Below, in pieces: positions 24,095-39,864 of a DNA stretch of 42,726 nt; the stretch's first letter is position 1, and each line of letters begins with the position of its first letter. The notes beneath the pieces are model-generated. The model worked only from the letters and a program-made list of their open reading frames with translations. It was not told the DNA's origin and did not search any database. The position numbers and the translations under genes were made by a program. The stretch is from an uncultured Parcubacteria group bacterium (lineage in GTDB: Bacteria; Patescibacteriota; Minisyncoccia; Phycocordibacterales; UBA2100): positions 1-42,726 of the forward strand of contig CAMTYD010000020.1 in the NCBI GenBank assembly GCA_947085915.1, in the 5' to 3' direction.

Positions 24095-24150
24095 CGTTGC
24101 ATAAAGATATTCACATACACCTCATTTTCACGGGTGTATACTTGTTTTTA

Positions 24151-27929: not shown

Positions 27930-29213
27930 TTACTCAATGTAATTTTGTGCAGGCGTATACCCCCCAAAAGGCTTCAGGTAGCTAAGCGCGAGAAGCAGGG
28001 CGCGCTTCATCGTGTCGAGCAATCTCATGGTGAAGGTGTTGTCTGCTCCTGTGAAGCCAGAGCCCGGATTGTTTGCGAGGTCATTCGAAGTAAAGGTCTG
28101 CGGGACGTTCAGGCCTTGGTAGACAGCTAGTGTGCCCGTTGCTCTTGTTGAGGTCGGTCTCTTGCCATCCAGTGATGTTGCGTCACTGGTATCGGGATTG
28201 AGGTCAATATCAACTGCGGTTCCGATATCGATCGAGTCGCTTGTCGGCTCGTCGAGGAACTCCTCAATGAGGTCGATACTCGATGTGGCCTTTTTCGTCG
28301 TAGTCGATTTGGTATTCGTATTTGTATTGGTGTTGGTATTCGTGTTGAGTAAATCCGAGACGGGGGTTGGCTGGGATGGTACAGAAGTGTTCGTGGGTTG
28401 GGCAGTCGGGGTTGATTGCTGAGGGGGTGGCGGAGGGGGTGGCGGTTGCTGCGGAGGCTGTTGCGGTTGTTGACCCATTGCCTGCCGGATTGCGTCTGAA
28501 AGCTGGGATGAGGGTGATGTGCTCGGATTTGGTATGCCCGATGTATCTGGATTTATGTTTACCTTGCCATCACAGCCTTTTGTCTGACGGCTGCAGGCAG
28601 CTTGCAGATTCTCAACGCACTGCAGGTGACGATATCCTTCGTGCTCGGAGTATGCAGAATGTATACCAAAAGGAGAGTTTGCGTTCTGTCTGCCCAGCAC
28701 TTGGAGAACCCAGGCAAGACACGAGGGACTTCCTGCCACATCAACGGCGAGTCCGTATTGATGGCAAGATCGGCCTTGAGGAGCGCATGCACCACCGCTC
28801 GGGTTACATTTTTGTAGAGGACGCATTGCACTGTTGATTTTTAGCGGGCACCCACGTGTTTCCGCGAACTCCATGAATTTCTTTAGTCGACAGGCCAGAG
28901 AGGGGTTCATACCGTTCGAAAATTCGCCGCCCGCACCCTGTCGTGGGGTAATGAAGCTGTTGGATTTATCGCCGTTATGACGCTGTTCTAGGAAGGGATA
29001 GGGATTCGTGTCGCATCCGCCATTCAAAACAGTCCCATCTTTTCCGTCGGGAGTACACGTACCAGCGGCGACACCTGGAACTTCGTTGGGCGCTGCGGGG
29101 TGCATGCCGCTCGGGCATTCGACCGCGAAGACGCGGGGAATTCCGAGAAAGCTTACAAAAATGATTCCGCACGCAAGAAAAAGTACTACAACCGCGCGCT
29201 CTCTAATCGACAT
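27930..29213 (-). CDS. Secreted Cys-rich protein with M15-like (D-Ala-D-Ala peptidase) Zn domain and Pro/Gln/Thr/Asn linker
   Basis: Signal peptide; INSAMRP, SCHQYGLAVD (SxHxxGxAxD) and a downstream RHLQ; followed by poly-P/Q and (NT)n tracts. Confidence 0.7.
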   Translation of the reverse strand: MSIRERAVVVLFLACGIIFVSFLGIPRVFAVECPSGMHPAAPNEVPGVAAGTCTPDGKDGTVLNGGCDTNPYPFLEQRHNGDKSNSFITPRQGAGGEFSNGMNPSLACRLKKFMEFAETRGCPLKINSAMRPLQKCNPSGGACAPQGRSCHQYGLAVDVAGSPSCLAWVLQVLGRQNANSPFGIHSAYSEHEGYRHLQCVENLQAACSRQTKGCDGKVNINPDTSGIPNPSTSPSSQLSDAIRQAMGQQPQQPPQQPPPPPPPPQQSTPTAQPTNTSVPSQPTPVSDLLNTNTNTNTNTNTKSTTTKKATSSIDLIEEFLDEPTSDSIDIGTAVDIDLNPDTSDATSLDGKRPTSTRATGTLAVYQGLNVPQTFTSNDLANNPGSGFTGADNTFTMRLLDTMKRALLLALSYLKPFGGYTPAQNYIE

Positions 29214-29270
29214 ACTTGCTAGTATACAGGGCTACGTGTCGTGCCGGCAGTCGTCCTGTGGACGCACCCT

Positions 29271-30605: not shown

Positions 30606-30676
30606 GTATACCCCATGAGATAACGATTTCTCTATAATTTGCATCAAATTATGACTTTTTATCTCACGGGGTATAC
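30606..30676 (-). mobile_element. GTATAC-flanked mini inverted-repeat element, copy 1 (opposite orientation to copies 2 and 3)
   Basis: GTATAC-CCCATGAGATA-(37 nt)-TATCTCACGGG-GTATAC. Confidence 0.8.
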
Positions 30677-30764
30677 TGAATAGCTGCGTAAAGTCCCGTT
30701 TTAATCGTCAGTACGGGACACGATTCTGCTGAATCGGGTACGCGGCATAATTTCGCAAAATCAT

Positions 30765-31466
30765 ATGAATCGCATCATTGGGTACTTACTCGCCCTCGTC
30801 GTTCTCTCCGGCCTTGCGTATGCAATTTATTCGTTTGTACCGAGAGGCCCTCTGTCGTCGGGAGAGCCAACCGCCGCGACAACAACCGGCACAAGCTTAG
30901 AGACAGAGATGAAAGTCGAGTCGGTCTATGAGGAGACCTCCGTCTACAAGATTGAAGCGCGCTATCCGCAATTCGGTATTTCTGCCGTGGATGCATACAT
31001 AAAAGCAGTTGTAGATAAAGCCATTACGGCGTTCAAGGAATATCCGGCGAATCCGGCCGGTTCTGCGGTGACGCAGAACGAGTTCACCGGCTCGTTTGAT
31101 TCCGTGTACGTAGGATCTGACATTGTGAGCGTTTCGCTCATCATCTCTGAATACACAGGTGGCGCGCATCCGAATACGGTCATCATCGGAGTAAATGTCG
31201 ATAGAAATACGGGGAGAGAGATTTTGCTTGATGACGCGCTTTGGATGATCGGGAAGACACTGCCGCAAGTCGCTGAGCAGTCTTTAAAGGAATTGAAAGC
31301 AACGCTCGGGGGAAACATCATTGCGCCCGAAGGAGCGGATCCCACGGTACAAAATTACAGCACCTTTCTCGTGACCAAAGAAAAAGTCACGTTCATCTTC
31401 AATAGTTACCAAGTCGCTCCGTATGCGGCAGGACAGCAGAAGGTGTGGTTCCAGCGCGTGAAATAA
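30765..31466 (+). CDS. DUF3298/DUF4163 (RsiV/PdaC-N-like) membrane-anchored protein
   Basis: TM anchor; YPQF, EYTGGAHPN, FNSYQVAPYAAG. Confidence 0.8.
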   Translation: MNRIIGYLLALVVLSGLAYAIYSFVPRGPLSSGEPTAATTTGTSLETEMKVESVYEETSVYKIEARYPQFGISAVDAYIKAVVDKAITAFKEYPANPAGSAVTQNEFTGSFDSVYVGSDIVSVSLIISEYTGGAHPNTVIIGVNVDRNTGREILLDDALWMIGKTLPQVAEQSLKELKATLGGNIIAPEGADPTVQNYSTFLVTKEKVTFIFNSYQVAPYAAGQQKVWFQRVK

Positions 31467-31589
31467 GGATTGTTCTGTCCCCCCAGGGGATTGCGATTTG
31501 TAACCACGCTTCGCGTGGACAAATCGGGAACTTGCCCTTCATGAGCGGTATGGGACACTGGAGGTGTTATCCATAACTAATACTATTGT

Positions 31590-32114
31590 ATGCCAGAAGG
31601 AAATACGCCCTCTACATCGGGCGGAAATAAGATGTACTACATTATCGGCGGCGTTATCGTCTTGGCGCTTATCGGTTGGTTCCTGATGCGCGGCGCAGGT
31701 TCTATGATGGGCGCTGCGACAGGCACAGATGTCGATCGCAACATGGATGGTTCGACAACATATACCAATGATCAAGGCAGCGTGACGGTAGGCACAGCCG
31801 CGAGTATGCCGGCCAATTGGCCGTCGGACGCACCGCAGAATTTTGCAGGTGCCACGATTGTCTACTCAGGCACATCAAATCCGCAGACCGGTCAGACGGG
31901 CTCAGCGGTTTCCTACACCGTGCGCGCCTCTGCACAAAGTGTCGCTGACCATTACAAGCAGCAGCTCAGCTCTGCTGGTTGGACTGTTCAGGCAACGGCA
32001 AACATGGGCGGTGCTACGGTTGTCTCGGCGTCCAAAGATGCACGCACGTTTGGCGCGTACATCACCGATGTAGGTGACGGTACCGCCTCGGTAGTCGTGG
32101 GCATAGGAATGTAA
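31590..32114 (+). CDS. Membrane-anchored extracellular hypothetical protein
   Basis: TM anchor; MPANWPSDAP...HYKQQLSSAGWT; paralog of 30043-30540. Confidence 0.7.
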   Translation: MPEGNTPSTSGGNKMYYIIGGVIVLALIGWFLMRGAGSMMGAATGTDVDRNMDGSTTYTNDQGSVTVGTAASMPANWPSDAPQNFAGATIVYSGTSNPQTGQTGSAVSYTVRASAQSVADHYKQQLSSAGWTVQATANMGGATVVSASKDARTFGAYITDVGDGTASVVVGIGM

Positions 32115-32128
32115 TTCATTTTTCGGTA

Positions 32129-32162
32129 ACTCAAAAGCCGCCCGAGAGGGCGGCGTTTGAGT
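32129..32162. terminator. Hairpin, probable terminator
   Basis: ACTCAAA-a-GCCGCCC-gaga-GGGCGGC-g-TTTGAGT. Confidence 0.6.
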
Positions 32163-32211
32163 CGGAGACAAGAGGGGACGCCCCCAGTCCAGGGCTATCC
32201 ACAGGCACGTC

Positions 32212-32240
32212 TTGACTGGTGAACTATAGTTCACTACACT
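32212..32240 (+). promoter_or_regulatory. lexA-dinB promoter with SOS box in the spacer
   Basis: TTGACT (32212-32217), 17 nt, TACACT (32235-32240). The spacer holds the perfect palindrome GTGAACTATAGTTCAC (32219-32234), a GAAC-N4-GTTC site. Confidence 0.85.
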
Positions 32241-32247
32241 GAGGGTA

Positions 32248-32814
32248 ATGTATGAGGAATATAAAAAGAAACTGGTCGCGTTTTATGAGACACATCGGCG
32301 TATGCCCGGCTACAAAGAGATCATGGCACTCACGGGTTTTAGATCCAAGAACGCTGTGTTCAAATTTATCGGTAAACTTATCGAGGACGGTGTGGTCCGA
32401 AAGGACGAAAGAGGCAGATTATCCCCGGCATCGCTCGGAGCGGGTATTCGACTCCTTGGTTTGGTCGAGGCGGGATTTCCTTCGGCAGCCGAGGAAGAGC
32501 TACTTGATGTTATAGATTTCGACGAGTACCTTACGCCCAACAAGGAGTCGAGCTACATCCTCAAGGTCAAAGGTGACTCGATGATAGATGCCGGTATCCA
32601 GCCGGGGGACATGGTCATCGTTGAACGAAAGAGCTCGTACAAGCTGGGGCAAATAGTAATCGCAAATGTGGACAGCGAATTTACTATGAAATATTTGCGC
32701 AAGTCGGGAGACAAGTACTATCTGGAGCCGGCCAACAAGAAATACAAGCCGATTTATCCAAAGGAATCTTTTTCTATTGAAGCGGTCGTAACCGCGGTCG
32801 TCCGTAAATATTAA
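32248..32814 (+). CDS. lexA: LexA repressor (HTH plus S24 autopeptidase)
   Basis: N-terminal MPGYKEIMALTGFRSKNAV, Ala-Gly cleavage site VEAGFP, catalytic Ser in GDSM and Lys in TMKY. Confidence 0.9.
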   Translation: MYEEYKKKLVAFYETHRRMPGYKEIMALTGFRSKNAVFKFIGKLIEDGVVRKDERGRLSPASLGAGIRLLGLVEAGFPSAAEEELLDVIDFDEYLTPNKESSYILKVKGDSMIDAGIQPGDMVIVERKSSYKLGQIVIANVDSEFTMKYLRKSGDKYYLEPANKKYKPIYPKESFSIEAVVTAVVRKY

Positions 32815-32816
32815 GT

Positions 32817-34118
32817 ATGGCATGGGGCGCGCAGCAGAGTTTTCCGCGCGCCATTTTGCATACGGATGGCGATTCGTTTTTTGCGTCGTGCGAAGTAGCC
32901 AAGAATCCCTCGCTGCGGGGAAAGCCCGTTATCACAGGTAAAGAACGCGGCATCGTTTCCTCTATGACATACGAGGCGCGGGCTCTCGGAGTGCGCCGCG
33001 CGATGCCGCTCCACGAAATAAAGAAAAAATTTCCCGAGGTTATTATTTTGCCGTCGGACTATGAGACATACAGTATCTTCTCCAACCGCATGTATGAAAT
33101 AGTGCGTAGATACACGCCGGCCGTCGAGGAATATTCTATCGATGAGTGCTTTGCCGACCTCACGGGTCTGCGTCGTCTGCATCACATGCCGTATCCAAAG
33201 ATTGCCGCATCTATCAAGCGTGACCTCGAGCGCGAGCTCGGCATGACATTTTCGATGGGTCTTTCGTGTACCAAGGTCTTAGCGAAGATAGGTTCAAAAT
33301 GGAACAAGCCTTCGGGGCTCACTATTATCCCGCTACGCGACGCGGGCGCATTTTTGAAGCAAACACCCATAGGGAAGATTTGGGGCATCGGGCCCAATAC
33401 CGCCGCTTACCTCAACAAATTTGGAATACAGACTGCATACGATTTCGCGAAGAAAGACGAGGCGTGGATACGGGCCACGACGTCGAAACCGTATGTTGAA
33501 TTGTGGAAAGAGCTCAATGGCACGGTGATGAGCGAGCTGGATAGTGCCGGCCGGAAAAGCTACCAATCAATACAAAAGACCAAGACCTTCACACCATCGC
33601 GGGATATGCGCGTCGTGTTCTCGCAGCTCTCCAAAAATGTCGAGAATGCCTGCATTAAGGCGCGCCGGTGGAATCTCGCTACAAAAGATATTTCCTTTTT
33701 TCTCAAGACACAGGATTTCCGCTATCACGGCTATGAGATAAAGCTTTCTTCGGCCACGTGCGTGCCGCAAGACATTCTGAAAGTTGTCTCGGAATATTTT
33801 CCCGATGTATTCAAAAAGGGTACGGAGTATCGCGCGACCGGGATTACCCTCATGAGCTTAGGTGATGCGGGTTCCGCACAGCTGGACATCTTTGGGTCTG
33901 TGCTGAAGTCGGAAGGATTGAAAAAGGTATTCGAGAGTGTGGACGCTATATCCCTGCGGTACGGTAAGCATGCGGTTTTTCTTGGCTCAAGCTTTGAGGC
34001 AATGAAATCCGGGGCGCATCTGGGAGAGCGCGGCGAGAAGCCGGCGCGGACGCGGGAACTCTTTAAGGGCGAGACCGCGCGCCGCCGATTGGGCATTCCG
34101 AGCTTAGGAGAAGTGTAA
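32817..34118 (+). CDS. dinB: Y-family DNA polymerase IV
   Basis: ILHTDGDSFFASCE, YEARALGV, YSIDECF, KIWGIG, clamp-binding-like QLDIF. Confidence 0.9.
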   Translation: MAWGAQQSFPRAILHTDGDSFFASCEVAKNPSLRGKPVITGKERGIVSSMTYEARALGVRRAMPLHEIKKKFPEVIILPSDYETYSIFSNRMYEIVRRYTPAVEEYSIDECFADLTGLRRLHHMPYPKIAASIKRDLERELGMTFSMGLSCTKVLAKIGSKWNKPSGLTIIPLRDAGAFLKQTPIGKIWGIGPNTAAYLNKFGIQTAYDFAKKDEAWIRATTSKPYVELWKELNGTVMSELDSAGRKSYQSIQKTKTFTPSRDMRVVFSQLSKNVENACIKARRWNLATKDISFFLKTQDFRYHGYEIKLSSATCVPQDILKVVSEYFPDVFKKGTEYRATGITLMSLGDAGSAQLDIFGSVLKSEGLKKVFESVDAISLRYGKHAVFLGSSFEAMKSGAHLGERGEKPARTRELFKGETARRRLGIPSLGEV

Positions 34119-34119
34119 G

Positions 34120-34156
34120 AAAACAAAAAGCGCCTTGCGGCGCTCTTTGTTGTTTT
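34120..34156. terminator. Bidirectional terminator between dinB and ssrA
   Basis: AGCGCC-ttgc-GGCGCT stem flanked by A-rich and T-rich tracts. Confidence 0.75.
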
Positions 34157-34157
34157 G

Positions 34158-34546
34158 TGGAAGTGCCGGGAATCGAACCCGGGTCCAGAAAATGGTATGC
34201 AGATGATTCTACAAGGCTTAGAGTATTCTTTTTTGTTTGAGTACAACGAGTAGGGAATACTCGAGATCGCGTTGTACCGGACTCTCTTTCTTTAGTTCCT
34301 TACCCGGAGTGAGATAAGGTTCGGACCCGAATTTTATGACACGCCATCTCTTGTATCGGATGTAGAAGAGGAGCGTGGTCGCTTAGGCTATTGCGTAAGC
34401 GAACTGAAGGTCTTTCATCTGAATAGGTGAAAGCTCTCCACGTGCTGTTTTATTTGCACTTAGGTTTTGAATGTTTTTATGGAAGGACATTCACTTCCGC
34501 CTCGCACACAAGCACACTGAATTTCCTGTCGAAGCCAGTCACCCCC
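34158..34546 (-). ncRNA. ssrA: tmRNA
   Basis: 5' GGGGGTGACTGGCTTCGAC and 3' GGACCCGGGTTCGATTCCCGGCACTTCCA; tag frame 34457-34383 ANKTARGELSPIQMKDLQFAYAIA*; directly downstream of smpB. Confidence 0.95.
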
Positions 34547-34594
34547 CATCTCCCATCTTAAAAAAGATGAGAGATGGCGATGGACTGACCACAG

Positions 34595-35038
34595 CTATTT
34601 ATTTTTCAAAGTCCTTTCGATGTGGCGTTTCTCGTCGCGGTTCTTAATACTATGACGCTTATCTTCCTTTTTCTTACCGCGCGCAATTCCTATCGAGAGT
34701 TTCAGATTTCGTCCTTTATTATACACCTTAAGTGGCACTATTGTCAACCCTTTCTCGCCCTCTGCCGAGGATACATGTGCGATTTGTTTTCGGGAAAGGA
34801 GCAACCGGCGCGTTCGTTCGGGGTCGTATGCTTTCGGAGCGTTGGCGGGCTGCCACGCGGGTATCGTCGCGCCCACGAGGTAGGCTTCGCCCCCGCGCGC
34901 CACGACGCGCGCGCCTTTGAGCGAGCCATGACCAGCGCGAAGCGACTTCACTTCGAAGCCGAGCAATTCCAAACCCGCCTCGATTTCTTCGAGTATCGTG
35001 TAGTCAAATCCGACGCGTTTATTTTCTACCACTGCCAT
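34595..35038 (-). CDS. smpB: SsrA-binding protein
   Basis: ENKRVGFDY, EAGLELLGFEVKSLR, RTRRLLL, GLTIVPL, ARGKKKEDKR. Start at ATG 35038. Confidence 0.97.
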   Translation of the reverse strand: MAVVENKRVGFDYTILEEIEAGLELLGFEVKSLRAGHGSLKGARVVARGGEAYLVGATIPAWQPANAPKAYDPERTRRLLLSRKQIAHVSSAEGEKGLTIVPLKVYNKGRNLKLSIGIARGKKKEDKRHSIKNRDEKRHIERTLKNK

Positions 35039-35103
35039 GCGAACACTATACACCGTGACCGCATTCTTTCATTCGCCGCTCTACTTATGTATAATGCCCA
35101 GCT

Positions 35104-37044
35104 ATGGCAACTCCAGAAAAACCGGTAGTGCGCAAACCACGAGAGGGAGGCGAGAAGCCAAAACCCACTGGCGGTCCTTCCATCTGGATGCAGCTCTCTG
35201 CCGCGTTCGCCGTCTTCCTCCTGCTCTCAGTCGGATATTCTTTTGTACGCCAATACATTTCTACTCCGGACGAGGTCGTGCCTCTTTCACAAATAGCGCA
35301 GGATATTACCGCGGGCACGATTACGTCGCTCGATGTCGCTGGTGACAAAATAACAGCAACCTACGTAGATACGACGACCAAGACCTCCCGCAAAGAAACC
35401 GAGAGTTCTCTCACGCAGACGCTTTCTGATTACGGTCTTACGCCCGAAAAAATGGCGGCGGTGAAAATAGAAATAAAAGACGAAGGGGGAGTGCGCTTCT
35501 GGGCGCTGACGCTGTTGCCGATTTTGGTGCCCGTCATCTTTCTCTTCGGCGTCATTTGGTATCTCTCACGACAAATGCGCGGAGGTGGGGGTATGCAAGC
35601 GTTCTCGTTTGGGAAATCGATGGCACGACTCGTAAATCCTGAAGACGAAGTGCAGAAAGTTACATTCAAAGATGTCGCAGGAGCAAAAGAAGCAAAGAGC
35701 GAATTGCTCGAGATAGTGGACTTCCTCAAGAATCCAAAGAAATTCATTCAGATAGGTGCACGCATTCCAAAGGGGGTGCTTCTGATGGGTGCACCGGGTA
35801 CCGGAAAGACACTGCTTGCGCGTGCGGTTGCGGGTGAAGCGGGCGTACCCTTCTTCTCGATATCAGGTTCTGAATTCGTCGAGATGTTTGTGGGCGTCGG
35901 CGCATCGCGTGTGCGCGATTTGTTCCTCACCGCGAAAAAGGCTTCCCCATCCATTATCTTCATAGACGAGATTGATGCGGTCGGGCGCGTGCGTGGCACG
36001 GGAGTGGGTGGCGGCAACGACGAGCGTGAGCAGACACTCAACCAGATACTTGTGGAGATGGACGGCTTCGAGCCGAATGAAAAGGTGATCGTGATGGCCG
36101 CATCCAACAGACCCGATGTTTTGGATCCAGCGCTCTTACGCCCGGGCCGTTTCGACAGACGCGTCATGATAGACCTCCCTGACCGCAAAGACCGCGAAGA
36201 GATTCTCAAAGTCCATGCACGCTCCAAGCCTTTGGGTGCTGATGTGAAGCTTGTCGTGATTGCTGAGCGTACACCAGGATTCTCAGGTGCTGACCTTGCG
36301 AGCTTGATGAACGAAGGAGCGATTCTTGCTGCACGTGAAGATAGAAAAGAAATCACCCAGTACGACCTCATCCGCTCAATAGAGAAAGTGATGCTCGGGC
36401 CGGAACGCCGCTCGCATGTGCTCAACAAAAAAGAAAAAGAAATCACTGCTTACCACGAAGCAGGGCACGCACTCGTCGCGTCTGTCTTGCCGTACGCCGA
36501 CCCGGTACACAAAATATCCATCATCTCGCGCGGTCGCGCTGCGGGCTACACGCTGAAGCTTCCACTCGAAGACCGCAAGATGCAATCGCGCAAAGAGTTT
36601 TTGGATGATATCGCAGTTTCCCTCGGCGGCTTCGTCGCAGAGAAAATGATATTCGACGATGTAACGACGGGTGCCTCAAATGATCTACAGGTCCTAACCG
36701 CGCTGGCGCGCAATATGGTCGTCCGCTACGGTATGTCCGACAAAATGGGTCCTATCGCTTTTGCGGCATCCGCCCAGCGCGCCATCTTTGGGGAAGGAGT
36801 AGAGAACGACCAGACTTCCCAGGAGGTCATCGCGGAGATTGATGCGGAGGTGAAGAAAATTATTTTGGCTGCACACAAGAAGGCTGAAAACGTCCTCATC
36901 AAACACCGTGATGCGCTCGATGCGATTGCACAAAAGCTTGTAGAAGTAGAAACCCTCGAACGCGCTGAATTTGAAACGATTCTCATCGTGCACGGCATTA
37001 CGCCAAAGAAGAAAGAGGATATCGAACACGCACCTTTAGCTTAA
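35104..37044 (+). CDS. ftsH: ATP-dependent zinc metalloprotease FtsH
   Basis: Two TM helices, [36 protein letters not shown]. Confidence 0.98.
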
Positions 37045-37045
37045 T

Positions 37046-38131
37046 CTACTTTTGGATTTGCCAGTGAATGGTCTCGTTGCCGAGGCCGTGCACGGTGTTA
37101 CAAATAGGCCAAATGTTGACGCCTTCGTCGGTTACGACAGGCTCGGTCGTCTGCCAATCTTTTTTGATGAGGGTTATCGTTTCCTTGCTCGGTTCGACGC
37201 CGTAGAAGCGGGGGCCGTTCACCGAAAGAAAATTCTCCAATTTATCGAGGCAACCGAGTTCGTCGAATATTTGTGCATACACTTCGATTGCGACAGGGGA
37301 GGTGAAGGTGCCGAAAGCGCAACACGAGGAGAATTTTTTCCCTTCCGGATGCGGTGCCGAATCGGTGCCTGCCGAGATGAAAGGAAGACCTTTTTTTGCA
37401 ATGTCGCGCACGCGCTCGCGGTCGGCACTGGTCTTTACGAGCGGCTTCATGTGGATGAGTGGGCGATAGCCGCCCGAAAATGCTTGGCGTCTGTCATAGA
37501 GAAGGTGCGTCGGGGTGATGGTCGCGACGAGCTGACCCTCTTTTCCGTTTTTCTCCATAAAATCGACGGCAGAAGCGCTCGACATGTGCTCGAGAGACAC
37601 TTTTAATCGCGGATACGCATCGAGGAGGCGGGGGAGGACGTCTGTTATAAAAAGTCGCTCGCCGTCGTACGGGTCTTCTTCTTCACCCGCATCATTGAGA
37701 TGCACTTCGCCGTGCAGGAGAAGTGGCATACCGACTTCCTCCATTTTTTTCAGAACATCTGCCGCTTCAAGGATTGAACGATAGCCCCACTGCGAATTTG
37801 TCGTTGCTCCATAGGGATATGATTTGACCGCATAGATTTTATTTTCTTTATCCCCAGAAAACCCCTTCTCAATTTCATCAGGTGTGAGGTTTTTTGTAAG
37901 ATAAAATGTAAGCAGTGGTTCGAAAGACATACCTCGGGGTAGCGCCCCGAGGATTTCTTTTTTGTACTCGGAGGCGAGCTCTACCGTGTCGATGGGCGGC
38001 TCTGTATTCGGCATGATGATTGCACCCGCGAATCGCTCAGCTGTTATGGGCGCTACAGCCCGCAATACGGCTCCGCGTCTGAGGTGTACATGGGAGTCGA
38101 AGGGTCTTTTGATGGTGATTGTGTTGCTCAT
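37046..38131 (-). CDS. pyrC: Dihydroorotase (homodimeric type II)
   Basis: DSHVHLR, MPNTEPP, GATTNS, LLHGEV, EHMSS, TPTHL, GTDSAPH. Start at ATG 38131. Confidence 0.93.
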   Translation of the reverse strand: MSNTITIKRPFDSHVHLRRGAVLRAVAPITAERFAGAIIMPNTEPPIDTVELASEYKKEILGALPRGMSFEPLLTFYLTKNLTPDEIEKGFSGDKENKIYAVKSYPYGATTNSQWGYRSILEAADVLKKMEEVGMPLLLHGEVHLNDAGEEEDPYDGERLFITDVLPRLLDAYPRLKVSLEHMSSASAVDFMEKNGKEGQLVATITPTHLLYDRRQAFSGGYRPLIHMKPLVKTSADRERVRDIAKKGLPFISAGTDSAPHPEGKKFSSCCAFGTFTSPVAIEVYAQIFDELGCLDKLENFLSVNGPRFYGVEPSKETITLIKKDWQTTEPVVTDEGVNIWPICNTVHGLGNETIHWQIQK

Positions 38132-38138
38132 GCGGGAA

Positions 38139-38207
38139 GTATACCCCGTGAGATACAAAAATCTCTTTTTCGCTGGGGACTTGGCACCTCTATCTCATGG
38201 GGTATAC
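38139..38207 (+). mobile_element. GTATAC-flanked mini inverted-repeat element, copy 2
   Basis: GTATAC-CCCGTGAGATA-(35 nt)-TATCTCATGGG-GTATAC, occupying most of the divergent pyrC/malic enzyme gap. Confidence 0.8.
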
Positions 38208-38216
38208 ACTGACGGA

Positions 38217-39353
38217 ATGAGCACCAAAAAAGATGTATCCAAACAGGCTTTGGCGCTTCACAAAAAGCTTGGCGGGAAGATTCGTATCATGCCTGCGGCG
38301 CCCGTACGCAATCGCGCCGACCTCTCTCTTGTCTACACCCCGGGCGTCGCCGCCGTTTCCTCCTACGTAGCCAAGCATCCAAAAGAAGCGCGTGACTATA
38401 CGATGAAAGGCCGCATGGTTGCCGTTATTTCAGACGGTTCAGCTGTCCTAGGGCTCGGTAACATCGGGGCATTGGGTGCCTTGCCCGTGATGGAAGGGAA
38501 GTGTGCACTTTTCAAAACATTCGCAGATGTGGATGCGGTGCCGCTCGTGCTCGATACACAAGACCCCGACGAAATAGTACGGACAGTGCTTGCGGTCGCA
38601 CCCGCATTTGGCGGTATCAACCTTGAAGACATCAATGCACCGAAATGTTTTGATATAGAAAAGCGCATAATCGAAGCGCTCGACATTCCCGTCATGCATG
38701 ACGACCAGCATGGAACTGCGGTTGTCGTATTGGCCGGAATCATCAACGCGCTCAAGGTTGTCGGCAAGAAAATGTCGGATGCGAAGGTGGTGGTGCTGGG
38801 TGCAGGTGCTGCAGGGACGGCTACTGCAAAGCTACTCCATGTGGCGGGTGCAAAAAACATCGTAGTGCTCGACAGCAAAGGTATCGTTGATGCAAATCGT
38901 CCAGAACCCCACAAGCGCGAGCTCTCAAAATTTAATACAAAGGGCGTGAAGGGTAATCTGCAGGATGCGCTCGAAGGCGCCGATGTGTTGCTCGGCGTCT
39001 CAGGTCCAAATACCGTCAAGGCTGAAGACATCAGGCTTATGGCGAAGAAGGCGATAGTCTTTGCGATGGCAAACCCAACGCCGGAAATAATGCCCGATGA
39101 AGCGAAAAAAGGAGGCGCATTTGTGATAGGCACCGGCCGCTCGGACTTTCCGAATCAGATAAATAACTCACTCGCATTTCCCGGGATATTCCGTGGTGCG
39201 CTCGAGAATCGCGTCACCAAAATTACCGATAAGATGAAATTGAAAGCAGCGTACGCGATAGCGGGGCTCGTCAAAAAACCGACCGTAAATAAAGTGGTTC
39301 CCGATATGTTCGATAAGCGTGTAGCGAAAGCGGTCGCGAAGGTGATTCGATAA
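38217..39353 (+). CDS. NAD(P)-dependent malic enzyme (no PTA domain)
   Basis: LSLVYTPGVA, SDGSAVLGLGNIG, PVMEGK, INLEDI, HDDQHGTA, GAGAAG, GRSDFPNQINN. Start at ATG 38217. Confidence 0.93.
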   Translation: MSTKKDVSKQALALHKKLGGKIRIMPAAPVRNRADLSLVYTPGVAAVSSYVAKHPKEARDYTMKGRMVAVISDGSAVLGLGNIGALGALPVMEGKCALFKTFADVDAVPLVLDTQDPDEIVRTVLAVAPAFGGINLEDINAPKCFDIEKRIIEALDIPVMHDDQHGTAVVVLAGIINALKVVGKKMSDAKVVVLGAGAAGTATAKLLHVAGAKNIVVLDSKGIVDANRPEPHKRELSKFNTKGVKGNLQDALEGADVLLGVSGPNTVKAEDIRLMAKKAIVFAMANPTPEIMPDEAKKGGAFVIGTGRSDFPNQINNSLAFPGIFRGALENRVTKITDKMKLKAAYAIAGLVKKPTVNKVVPDMFDKRVAKAVAKVIR

Positions 39354-39363
39354 TTCTCACGAG

Positions 39364-39432
39364 GTATACCCCGTGAGATAAAAAGGTTCGAACCCATTCA
39401 ATATCTGAAGGCAATTATCTCATGGGGTATAC
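39364..39432 (+). mobile_element. GTATAC-flanked mini inverted-repeat element, copy 3
   Basis: GTATAC-CCCGTGAGATA-(35 nt)-TATCTCATGGG-GTATAC. Confidence 0.8.
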
Positions 39433-39439
39433 TAAGCGT

Positions 39440-39676
39440 ATGGATCCGATGCAACTTGCTCAGATGAAACGCACCGTCGAGTGGCACGCTGAAGAAGCGC
39501 GCCATCACGAACGTGACCTACAGACCGCCGAGCTAGCTCTCGAAAACGCAAAGAAGAAAGTCGACGAATTGCGCAAGCGAGCCGTCGAAAGCAAACGCAA
39601 GCTCGAAGTGTATAAAGGGGACGTCGTGCGCGCGGAAGCAGAAGTCCGTAAGAAGATAGCTGACGCCCGTCATTGA
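39440..39676 (+). CDS. Small coiled-coil hypothetical protein
   Basis: 78 aa, E/K/R/A-rich helical pattern; ATG 6 nt after TATACT. Confidence 0.65.
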   Translation: MDPMQLAQMKRTVEWHAEEARHHERDLQTAELALENAKKKVDELRKRAVESKRKLEVYKGDVVRAEAEVRKKIADARH

Positions 39677-39790: not shown

Positions 39791-39864
39791 TCCGCCCTCT
39801 TGGATTCGAACCAAGGACCCCAGAGGTATAAGCTCTGTGCTCTAACCAGCTGAGCTAAGGGCGG
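39791..39864 (-). tRNA. tRNA-Ile (anticodon UAU)
   Basis: CCGCCCT/AGGGCGG acceptor stem, TAGCTCAGCTGGTTAGAGC D arm, CAGAG-CT-TAT-AC-CTCTG anticodon arm, GGTTCGAATCC T arm, discriminator A. CCA is not encoded. Confidence 0.95.

Follow-up and report, generated by a model that had tools for sequence, protein, structure and literature searches.

Very small MITEs inserted into the -10 boxes of leaderless genes in a genus of the Candidate Phyla Radiation

A stretch of 42,726 nucleotides (the window) from an uncultured Parcubacteria group bacterium (contig CAMTYD010000020.1 of assembly GCA_947085915.1) contains three copies of a short inverted-repeat element, and comparison with related genomes showed that these copies belong to a real, well-populated family of MITEs (miniature inverted-repeat transposable elements). 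The reading that we favor, with a probability of about 0.72, is that of a very small non-autonomous MITE of a Kaiserbacteria-type genus of the Candidate Phyla Radiation (CPR), which targets the -10 boxes of leaderless genes, is probably a promoter cassette, and has interiors that drift. The genome to which the window belongs (G000) comprises 786,396 bp in 59 contigs, has a G+C content of 52% and is about 91% complete. It was compared with the other genomes of a genus sample (labeled G###, n = 61 with G000 included) and with loci from other genomes (L###).

That the elements are insertions was established by aligning occupied and empty alleles; for these comparisons, orthologous loci were retrieved via the neighboring proteins and not via the arms of the element. 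At the HisRS/SET locus 13 of 29 relatives read aaG-TATA-ATAC, where G000 has aaG[TATA]CCCC...GGGG[TATA]ATAC. The ParB site is empty in G050 (gatgaTATAATttcccgATG) and occupied in G000 (gatga[TATA]CCCC...GGGG[TATA]ATttccacATG), and the YqeY site, which reads ttgcTATACT in G050 and G011, is ttgc[TATA]CCCC...GGGG[TATA]CT in G000. The decisive case is the pyrophosphatase gene, which has a TACACT box in 7 of 13 relatives and [TACA]CCCC...GGGG[TACA]CT in G000: since this duplication is not palindromic and copies the target, the flanking tetramer is not carried by the element. Empty alleles were also present at all three sites of the window, each of which was compared in 29 relatives. At the site of copy 2 none of the relatives has arms, and the eight that keep the divergent pyrC gene read CAT-N7-GTATAC-N9-ATG (a spacer of 22 nt from ATG to ATG). 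The small open reading frame (ORF) downstream of copy 3 was found in three relatives (L013, L020 and L031), each with a single TATACT. At the site of copy 1, G010 is syntenic and empty, G021 has a hairpin form with an 8-nt loop, and most orthologues carry TATACT or TATAAT 6 nt ahead of the ATG. When elements of other genomes were mapped in the reverse direction, 65 had usable flanks and ten could be placed on G000 by both flanks, three at occupied and seven at empty sites (an apparent fourth occupied match was a neighboring site).

An earlier note on this DNA, made from the sequence alone (the original prediction), had proposed a MITE-like element that duplicates a 6-bp GTATAC target. The comparison of empty and occupied alleles at seven sites bears out the insertion, but corrects the duplication to 4 bp, TATA or TACA; the adjoining C and G belong to the ends of the element, and GTATAC was composed of TATA, the first or last base of the element and one base of the flank. 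In the full census of 134 elements with 268 arms (32 elements from G000 plus loci L001-L010 and L041-L158), arm positions 1-16 are conserved to 92-100% and just 72% of arms have C as their outermost base; most figures for arm conservation carry an upward bias, since the arms themselves served to find the copies. The flanks are often mixed, as in CTATAC...GTATAC. The element itself is 5'-CCCCRTGAGATA - interior - TATCTCAYGGGG-3', with 12-nt terminal inverted repeats (TIRs). The elements are thus insertions with a 4-bp target duplication, and of the features by which MITEs are recognized the family shows TIRs, a target duplication with an empty site, and small, non-coding units in many copies; a parent element was not found in the genomes searched (see below).

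Leaderless genes provide the target, which consists of the first four positions of their -10 hexamer (TAnA, in most cases TATA). Of 64 arms in G000, 26 have an ATG 6-11 nt after them, most often at 7 nt, that opens an ORF of 60 aa or more. An earlier, first census of 200 arms found 76 of them 4-12 nt ahead of an ATG (mode 7), with T as the next base in 69 of the 76, which gives TATACT. In the full census 92 of the 134 elements have at least one such arm (83 have one, nine have two) and 42 have none. Predicted leaderless architecture is general in G000, where many genes have their -10 box at a distance of 6-7 nt from the ATG: of 1047 candidate first ATGs, 99 are preceded by a TANNNT hexamer that ends exactly 6 nt away, as compared to 6-33 at offsets farther upstream, and the commonest of these hexamers are TATACT (23), TATAAT (10) and TAGAAT (9). 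The elements are intergenic, although crude ORF calling assigns about 79% of TATA/TACA words to coding sequence. The adjacent genes are unrelated housekeeping genes (HisRS, S16, UvrC, RuvA, YidC, pyrophosphatase, DnaE, ParB, PilM, PheS, HMG-CoA reductase and others), so that no regulon emerges. A separate observation concerns divergent pairs of leaderless genes whose ATGs are about 22 nt apart and which have one palindromic -10 sequence in common, either GTATAC (orthologues of window positions 38131-38217; L012, L013 and others) or GTATAATAC (orthologues of the HisRS/SET locus on G000 C1; L222, L223 and others).

A search of the whole of G000 with the arm motif, which the earlier note had proposed, uncovered a large family, with 70 half-site matches (at most three mismatches) and 33 paired elements. 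Their core-to-core lengths are 56-59 bp (n = 19), 91-96 bp (n = 12), 82 bp (n = 1) and 103 bp (n = 1), and tandem element pairs with a common central GTATAC occur at three places (C54, C43 and C31). The single conserved length that the window copies had suggested did not hold in the full census, where interiors fall into three classes of 6-17 nt (16 elements), 33-39 nt (65) and 61-80 nt (48), with five outliers. The elements are about 35-105 bp in size and non-coding, and their presence varies among relatives. With at most one mismatch, the arm 16-mer was found in 42 of the 61 genus genomes, against one match overall for a reversed-pattern control, and the number of arms per genome ranges from 0 to 62 (G000 62, G020 62, G069 44, G016 32, G021 26). 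Among 16 genomes from other families of the order, one had a match to the 17-mer, a single one with one mismatch. A scan of species representatives yielded at least 118 stretches, nearly all in CPR metagenome-assembled genomes (MAGs) with names that include Kaiserbacteria, Paceibacterota and Parcubacteria; among the matches listed, a few single-arm matches in unrelated bacteria look like chance. In some subfamilies the same change is present in both arms (TATCCCA in G000 C27, C32 and C22; TATCTAA in G000 C52 and several G069 elements), which fits replication of variant masters.

Related structures were noticed beside the family. The TATA(A) site of HisRS carries sister hairpins in which the arms begin with CCC(C) and end with (G)GGG between TATA or TATAA flanks, namely CCCCTTACCACTTTTG... 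in G024 (L225), CCCGTACACACGAAA... in G051 (L239) and another form in G043 (L234); these shared ends suggest a wider superfamily. At the site of copy 1, G070 (L202) has a hairpin with other, mutually complementary arms, likewise with CCC(C)...(G)GGG ends and TATA(A) flanks.

Interiors were compared between copies within G000 and between orthologous copies. The three window interiors (37, 35 and 35 nt) are mutually unrelated, as originally observed, and the same applies more widely to G000, in which the first 16 nt of interiors share 4.6-4.7 positions on average as compared to 4.0-4.1 in shuffles. The best same-orientation pair of the short class in G000, copy 3 and C38:6581, has a score of 16 and is about 69% alike by hand count. 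Orthologous copies have interiors that are 61-78% identical, compared with 91-97% for the arms. Three such pairs were found by their arms: C1 and L083 (interior 22/33, arms 33/34), C42 and L118 (46/74 and 31/34), and L002 and L149 (49/72 and 33/34). The ParB pair of G000 and G010 was found through the protein and is therefore without the arm bias; here the interiors agree at 28/36 positions with no gaps, the arms differ only at the purine/pyrimidine (R/Y) site described below, and the flanks agree at 53/60 and 49/60. In one MAG, two contigs contain tandem units whose 73-nt interiors are nearly identical, with scores of 55-57 out of 73 from contig to contig. The long class is more spread in length than the short class, as drift from two founder lengths would give. 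Interiors do not fold (mean z +0.18 for 65 short and +0.11 for 48 long ones). When 32 G000 interiors were searched against their own genome with BLAST, only chance matches of 12-18 nt were obtained (best E 0.014); of three interiors searched against 50,697 phage records two had no match and the third had chance 23-nt matches at E 0.1, plasmids and viral contigs lying outside this search. The proposed search for a source in host and phage DNA thus yielded none in the own genome or the phage records. These results show that interiors are inherited and then drift.

The original prediction also held that the two arms always differ at one position. This is true of all three copies in the window, but family-wide the pair at the R/Y position is mismatched in 94 of 134 elements (G..T in 50 and A..C, the same pair flipped, in 44) and a perfect G..C in 37, the remainder being A..T in one and other pairs in two. 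The position defines the orientation of the element, and orthologous copies can differ there. T is present at it in 97 of 268 arms, so that by our own arithmetic about 17.5 elements with T in both arms would be expected if the arms were independent, and one was seen; related copies are, however, not independent. The G-bearing strand folds into a continuous stem of -15.0 to -18.1 kcal/mol as DNA, and the other strand, with an A.C mismatch, into one of -14.2 to -15.8 kcal/mol. As to which arm is turned toward the gene, the C-arm (37 cases) does not significantly outnumber the T-arm (22 cases; p = 0.07).

The location of the elements raises the question of promoter activity. Native promoters of the leaderless type follow the consensus gtGnTAtAaT without a -35 signal. 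Next to each arm, at interior positions -11 to -7, the elements carry a weak TTGAA signal (39-49% per position), which lies 17 bp from the rebuilt hexamer and is present on both gene-facing and non-facing sides. The best indirect sign of a promoter role, although a single case, comes from the rhodanese gene, which is preceded by a full element in G000. In G050, with 85% protein identity, only the gene-proximal arm and the adjacent 12 interior nt are kept (L301, G050:C1), immediately behind the upstream stop codon. This stretch of 28 nt, identical to G000 at 28/28 positions, is made up of TCGAAC, then a spacer of 17 nt, then TATAGT at 6 nt from the ATG. At the 22% interior divergence of similarly distant species, 28 identical neutral positions would have a probability of about 0.001 by our own arithmetic. 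The conserved half-element argues that the half next to the gene serves as a promoter. Solo arms occur elsewhere too, for example at G020:C4:86477. Judging from these sequence features, the element is probably a portable, potentially bidirectional promoter cassette, and the likeness to the promoter-carrying Correia elements of Neisseria that the earlier note had drawn appears apt, given arms that sit in leaderless -10 boxes and a half-element conserved in one species. With the box rebuilt on both sides, such elements can presumably spread in a tightly packed genome without obviously silencing the neighboring genes.

The favored reading can be put as follows. An element with 12-nt TIRs and an interior of about 9, 35 or 71 nt would enter a -10 hexamer located 6-7 nt before a leaderless ATG, inserting into its first four bases and duplicating these 4 bp. 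The hexamer on the gene side would be restored because the duplicated TATA precedes the original last two bases, and the opposite side would gain a second, outward GGGG-TATAnn. The element would put its own arm in place of the native extended -10 context (gtGnTAtAaT) and would also bring a weak -35-like TTGAA exactly 17 bp upstream of each rebuilt hexamer. Afterwards the interior would drift almost freely, the arms and the -35 region on the gene side being kept. Of these steps, the insertion, its 4-bp duplication, the position of the target and the inheritance of interiors are shown by the comparisons above; promoter activity and the cause of arm conservation are inferred.

The following features of the window illustrate this arrangement. 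The 17-nt half-site TATCTCAYGGGGTATAC has six perfect copies and a seventh with three mismatches; seven matches at this threshold compare with 0.07 expected, and none of 100 shuffles reached seven. The six perfect half-sites are the arms of the three copies that had been reported, at 30606-30622 and 30660-30676 (copy 1), 38139-38155 and 38191-38207 (copy 2), and 39364-39380 and 39416-39432 (copy 3), and reading of the sequence confirmed that copy 1 is inverted relative to the other two. The element proper of copy 1 (CCCC...GGGG, 30611..30671, 61 bp with a 37-nt interior) has its G-bearing strand on the minus strand. Its left TATA is at 30607..30610, with the 4-bp rule taken from the other sites, and its right TATA together with CT forms a rebuilt, -10-like TATACT on the plus strand (30672..30677), 88 nt before the ATG at 30765 of a DUF3298/PdaC gene. 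Copy 2 (38144..38202, plus strand, 59 bp with a 35-nt interior) lies between the divergent pyrC and malic-enzyme genes, the former identified by the TIGR00856 profile (319.5 bits, cut-off 293). On the minus strand its left TATA (38140..38143) is part of a TATACT 6 nt before the pyrC ATG (38131-38129); the right TATA and CA make up a TATACA -10 hexamer (38203..38208, plus strand) 8 nt before the malic-enzyme ATG at 38217, and a -35-like TTGGCA of putative function is present in the interior (38181..38186, plus strand), 16 nt upstream of the rebuilt TATACA. Copy 3 (39369..39427, plus strand, 59 bp with a 35-nt interior) is located between the malic-enzyme stop codon (39351-39353) and the small ORF at 39440. 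Its left TATA is at 39365..39368, and its right TATA plus CT gives TATACT (39428..39433, plus strand) 6 nt before the ATG at 39440 of this 78-aa ORF, which is leaderless by position. The flanking box had been placed 6 nt before these gene starts, and the outer TATAC(N) does lie shortly ahead of them: GTATAC is separated from the ATG by 7 nt for pyrC (minus strand), 9 nt for the malic enzyme and 7 nt for the ORF at 39440. As to the unoccupied GTATACT boxes that had been listed, the one at 29222..29227 (minus strand) is a target-type site, 6 nt before the ATG of ORF 27930-29213 and predicted to be its leaderless -10 box; at 24136 the word is present, but no ATG follows it.

Further observations were made in and around the window. 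The DUF3298/PdaC gene has in G000 an 88-nt leader (30677-30764) with a hairpin GTCCCGT...ACGGGAC, and most of its orthologues are leaderless. An Rfam scan of the window found no family on the elements or on this leader; its only matches were a tmRNA at 34155-34546(-), with 123.6 bits, and a tRNA at 39791-39864(-). Among short Logan contigs from four DNA runs that correspond to window:30000-40000, several end in or beside arms, and three arm-arm joints proved to be other family copies with different interiors; no joint of an empty allele appeared among them, which counts neither for nor against insertion. In the whole of G000, GTTAAC occurs 18 times and CTATAG 68 times against 175 expected for each, which suggests restriction-site avoidance; GTATAC (202 against 175) is not avoided.

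Several findings weigh against the favored reading. One concerns the moving enzyme. In five carrier genomes (G000, G020, G016, G021 and G014) no match was obtained to the profiles DDE_3 (PF13358), DDE_Tnp_1 (PF01609), DDE_Tnp_4 (PF13359), DDE_Tnp_1_4 (PF13701) or the TnpB domain (PF07282), and across the 61 genus genomes none to DDE_Tnp_1_2 (PF13586) or DDE_5 (PF13546); the genomes are MAGs of 77-100% completeness. The profiles rve (PF00665) and IS110 (PF01548) each matched in one of the five carriers, G021. Of seven DDE families in all, six were thus without a match and rve was found in one genome, and no transposase could be linked to the family. Nor did the search for a long element with the same ends and a transposase, which the earlier note had recommended, find one. 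Moreover, an arm at 4-12 nt from an ATG is lacking in 42 of the 134 elements, and copy 1 is 88 nt away from its gene. A selection filter, instead of targeting, could account for the restriction to promoters. The near-absence of T in both arms is left without an explanation. Almost no two G000 interiors are alike even though the arms are near perfect, and this contrast is not predicted by a simple neutral birth-death model, which needs selection on the arms or another process in addition. As candidates for an autonomous element, wide arm pairs in G016, G021 and G020 and a 287-bp case on C55 were considered and rejected, as they enclose ordinary genes or are separate hairpins.

A bolder account, unlikely in our judgment, is that of a promoter-homing element moved by an undescribed kind of transposase, or by RAYT-like proteins (see below) in an undescribed way. 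The -10 hexamer itself would be recognized, perhaps in its melted or RNA-polymerase-bound state, and the element would have been adopted by the host lineage as a standard promoter module, with its arms bound by a dedicated factor that keeps them intact as interiors randomize. The rule against T in both arms would then stem from a step specific to one strand or side. We also hold it doubtful that the family consists of elements of the REPIN/REP type, moved through a single-stranded hairpin by a REP-associated tyrosine transposase (RAYT; HUH Y1), with the G.T wobble marking the active strand. REPINs show the same odd pattern of arms and spacers (PMC3337134). The G-bearing strand, which folds without a mismatch, is more stable than the other, and Y1_Tnp genes are present in 5/5 carriers in 3-6 copies each. 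In G000 five Y1 genes (C5:224-859(-), C5:12560-13261(-), C17:3915-4628(+), C2:16267-17028(+) and C45:10832-11482(-)) pass the Pfam Y1_Tnp cut-off and have 'REP-associated tyrosine transposase' as their best NCBIfam match, below its cut-off, and each has its own flanking palindrome, a feature of RAYTs. (The palindrome ATATCGGGATTTCGTAAATCCCGATAT has about eight dispersed copies in G000, several of them touching gene starts.) But the five Y1 loci scanned have no focal arms, and the sequences flanking arm loci encode no Y1 protein. Of five paralogue groups, the one traced was that of the most canonical RAYT (C5:224-859); the distribution of its orthologues is not in step with arm counts, as none was found in arm-rich G020, G069, G016 and G021 and they are present in arm-free G015, G065, G068, G062 and G018. 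A single arm has no palindromic core of its own, the interiors are not self-complementary (mean z +0.1 to +0.2), whereas REPIN spacers form hairpins, and orientation alternates along one 200-kb contig of G020. A true, non-palindromic TACA duplication is also unlike IS200/IS605 insertion, and a true duplication of 4 bp favors a transposase with staggered cuts over insertion of this HUH type.

The nature of the duplication bears equally on the proposal that the elements are products of site-specific recombination, of the integron attC type or exploiting Xer, which we regard as very unlikely. In its favor, the tandem junction TATCTCAYGGG-GTATAC-CCCRTGAGATA is a 28-bp palindrome with 11-nt arms and a 6-nt center, a layout like that of dif or lox, and the arms, variable loop and one fixed mismatch, with strand asymmetry at one stem position, recall attC hairpins. 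Tyrosine recombinases (PF00589) are present in 5/5 carriers in 1-2 copies, which are probably Xer, and large serine recombinases (PF00239) in 4/5. G000 has no match to the latter, however, and the 4-bp duplication takes up target sequence (TACA, or TATA followed by AT or CT), with no fixed core common to element and target, whereas tyrosine recombinases have overlaps of 6-8 bp and serine recombinases of 2 bp. Besides, the arms are without the attC core GTTRRRY, there are no cassette arrays, and the neighbors are housekeeping genes. Paired operators, or a structured regulatory site, conserved in place and immobile, would account for highly conserved arms in promoters and for sites common to several species; this alternative, named in the original prediction, is refuted by clean empty sites at seven loci with exact 4-bp duplications at the occupied ones, and 0-62 arms per genome within one genus and neighboring genes without a functional theme leave it next to no credibility. 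Binding of a factor to the arms may be a secondary use at most. Hardly any credence can be given, either, to the ruler-type or sequence-capturing mechanism of the earlier note, by which about 35 nt of foreign or host DNA would be taken up at each insertion, similarly to CRISPR spacers. The near-random G000 interiors and the clustering of lengths around 35 and 71 nt, roughly twofold, would suit it. It fails on the inheritance of interiors by orthologous copies (28/36, 46/74 and 49/72), on the recent copies with the same 73-nt interiors on two contigs of one MAG, and on the spread of lengths around founder lengths, wider in the long class as drift predicts. The likeness of copy 3 to C38:6581, the common TTGAA register by each arm, and matches to the own genome and to phages at chance level also speak against it. 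Since interiors are inherited and drift, neither a ruler nor capture is needed.

If the elements are promoter-targeting MITEs, as we favor, they bear on how a transposon can persist in a dense genome: by landing in one ever-present intergenic word and rebuilding that word. CPR genomes are tiny and gene-dense, little mobile DNA is usually ascribed to them, and their promoters are almost unstudied. The family would provide ready-made candidate promoter cassettes for organisms that have not yet been grown alone. It would also be a second example, beyond the Correia elements of Neisseria and the REPINs of pseudomonads, of conserved arms with a free interior and no known transposase. Full-text literature searches (on leaderless promoters of Patescibacteria, MITEs of CPR bacteria and repetitive palindromes of Parcubacteria), with subscription journals outside their coverage, did not find the family in print.

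Among known systems, MITEs of the IS5/IS701 type (ISfinder) have 4-bp duplications, and the present family resembles insertion sequence (IS)-derived MITEs in its short TIRs, its AT-rich 4-bp duplication, its lack of coding sequence and its many copies. It differs from them in that there is no parent IS or DDE match (PF01609 0/5; PF13586 and PF13546 0/61) and the interior is not conserved. The attC sites of integrons have the R''/R' cores RYYYAAC / GTTRRRY. With these sites the family shares imperfect inverted repeats, a variable loop, a commonest size of about 57-60 bp and a strand asymmetry arising from an unpaired or mismatched base, but it lacks the GTTRRRY/RYYYAAC cores and any cassette array or integrase context, and its duplication is taken from the insertion site.

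The Correia elements (CREE/NEMIS) are 100-155 bp long, with TIRs of 26 bp and a 2-bp TA duplication, and their interior is conserved and contains an IHF site; we know of no cognate transposase. Like them, the present elements are small and non-coding, have TIRs and two or more length classes, and mostly lie just upstream of genes. They are set apart, by features and not by sequence comparison, through their 12-nt TIRs, unconserved interior and 4-bp duplication, through a target that is the -10 hexamer of leaderless genes and is rebuilt, and through their host, a CPR bacterium. A review of the Correia elements describes sigma-70-like promoters that can drive neighboring genes and a TIR hairpin in RNA connected with RNase III (PMC10969869). 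For REPINs, Bertels and Rainey (PMC3337134) report spacings of 34-36, 41-43 and 71, no two identical spacers among hundreds, REP ends that are 94-98% conserved, and excision remnants in the form of long palindromes. The family has in common with REPINs the inverted conserved ends, the less conserved spacer, discrete lengths that include 34-36 and 71, long persistence in a lineage, short palindromic remnants, and RAYT-like genes in the same genomes. It differs in having arms that pair only with each other and have no palindromic core of their own, interiors that do not fold, no RAYT-like gene flanked by the arms, and a true target duplication. Thus, the family behaves most like the Correia elements and looks like a REPIN, while departing from the defining features of both.

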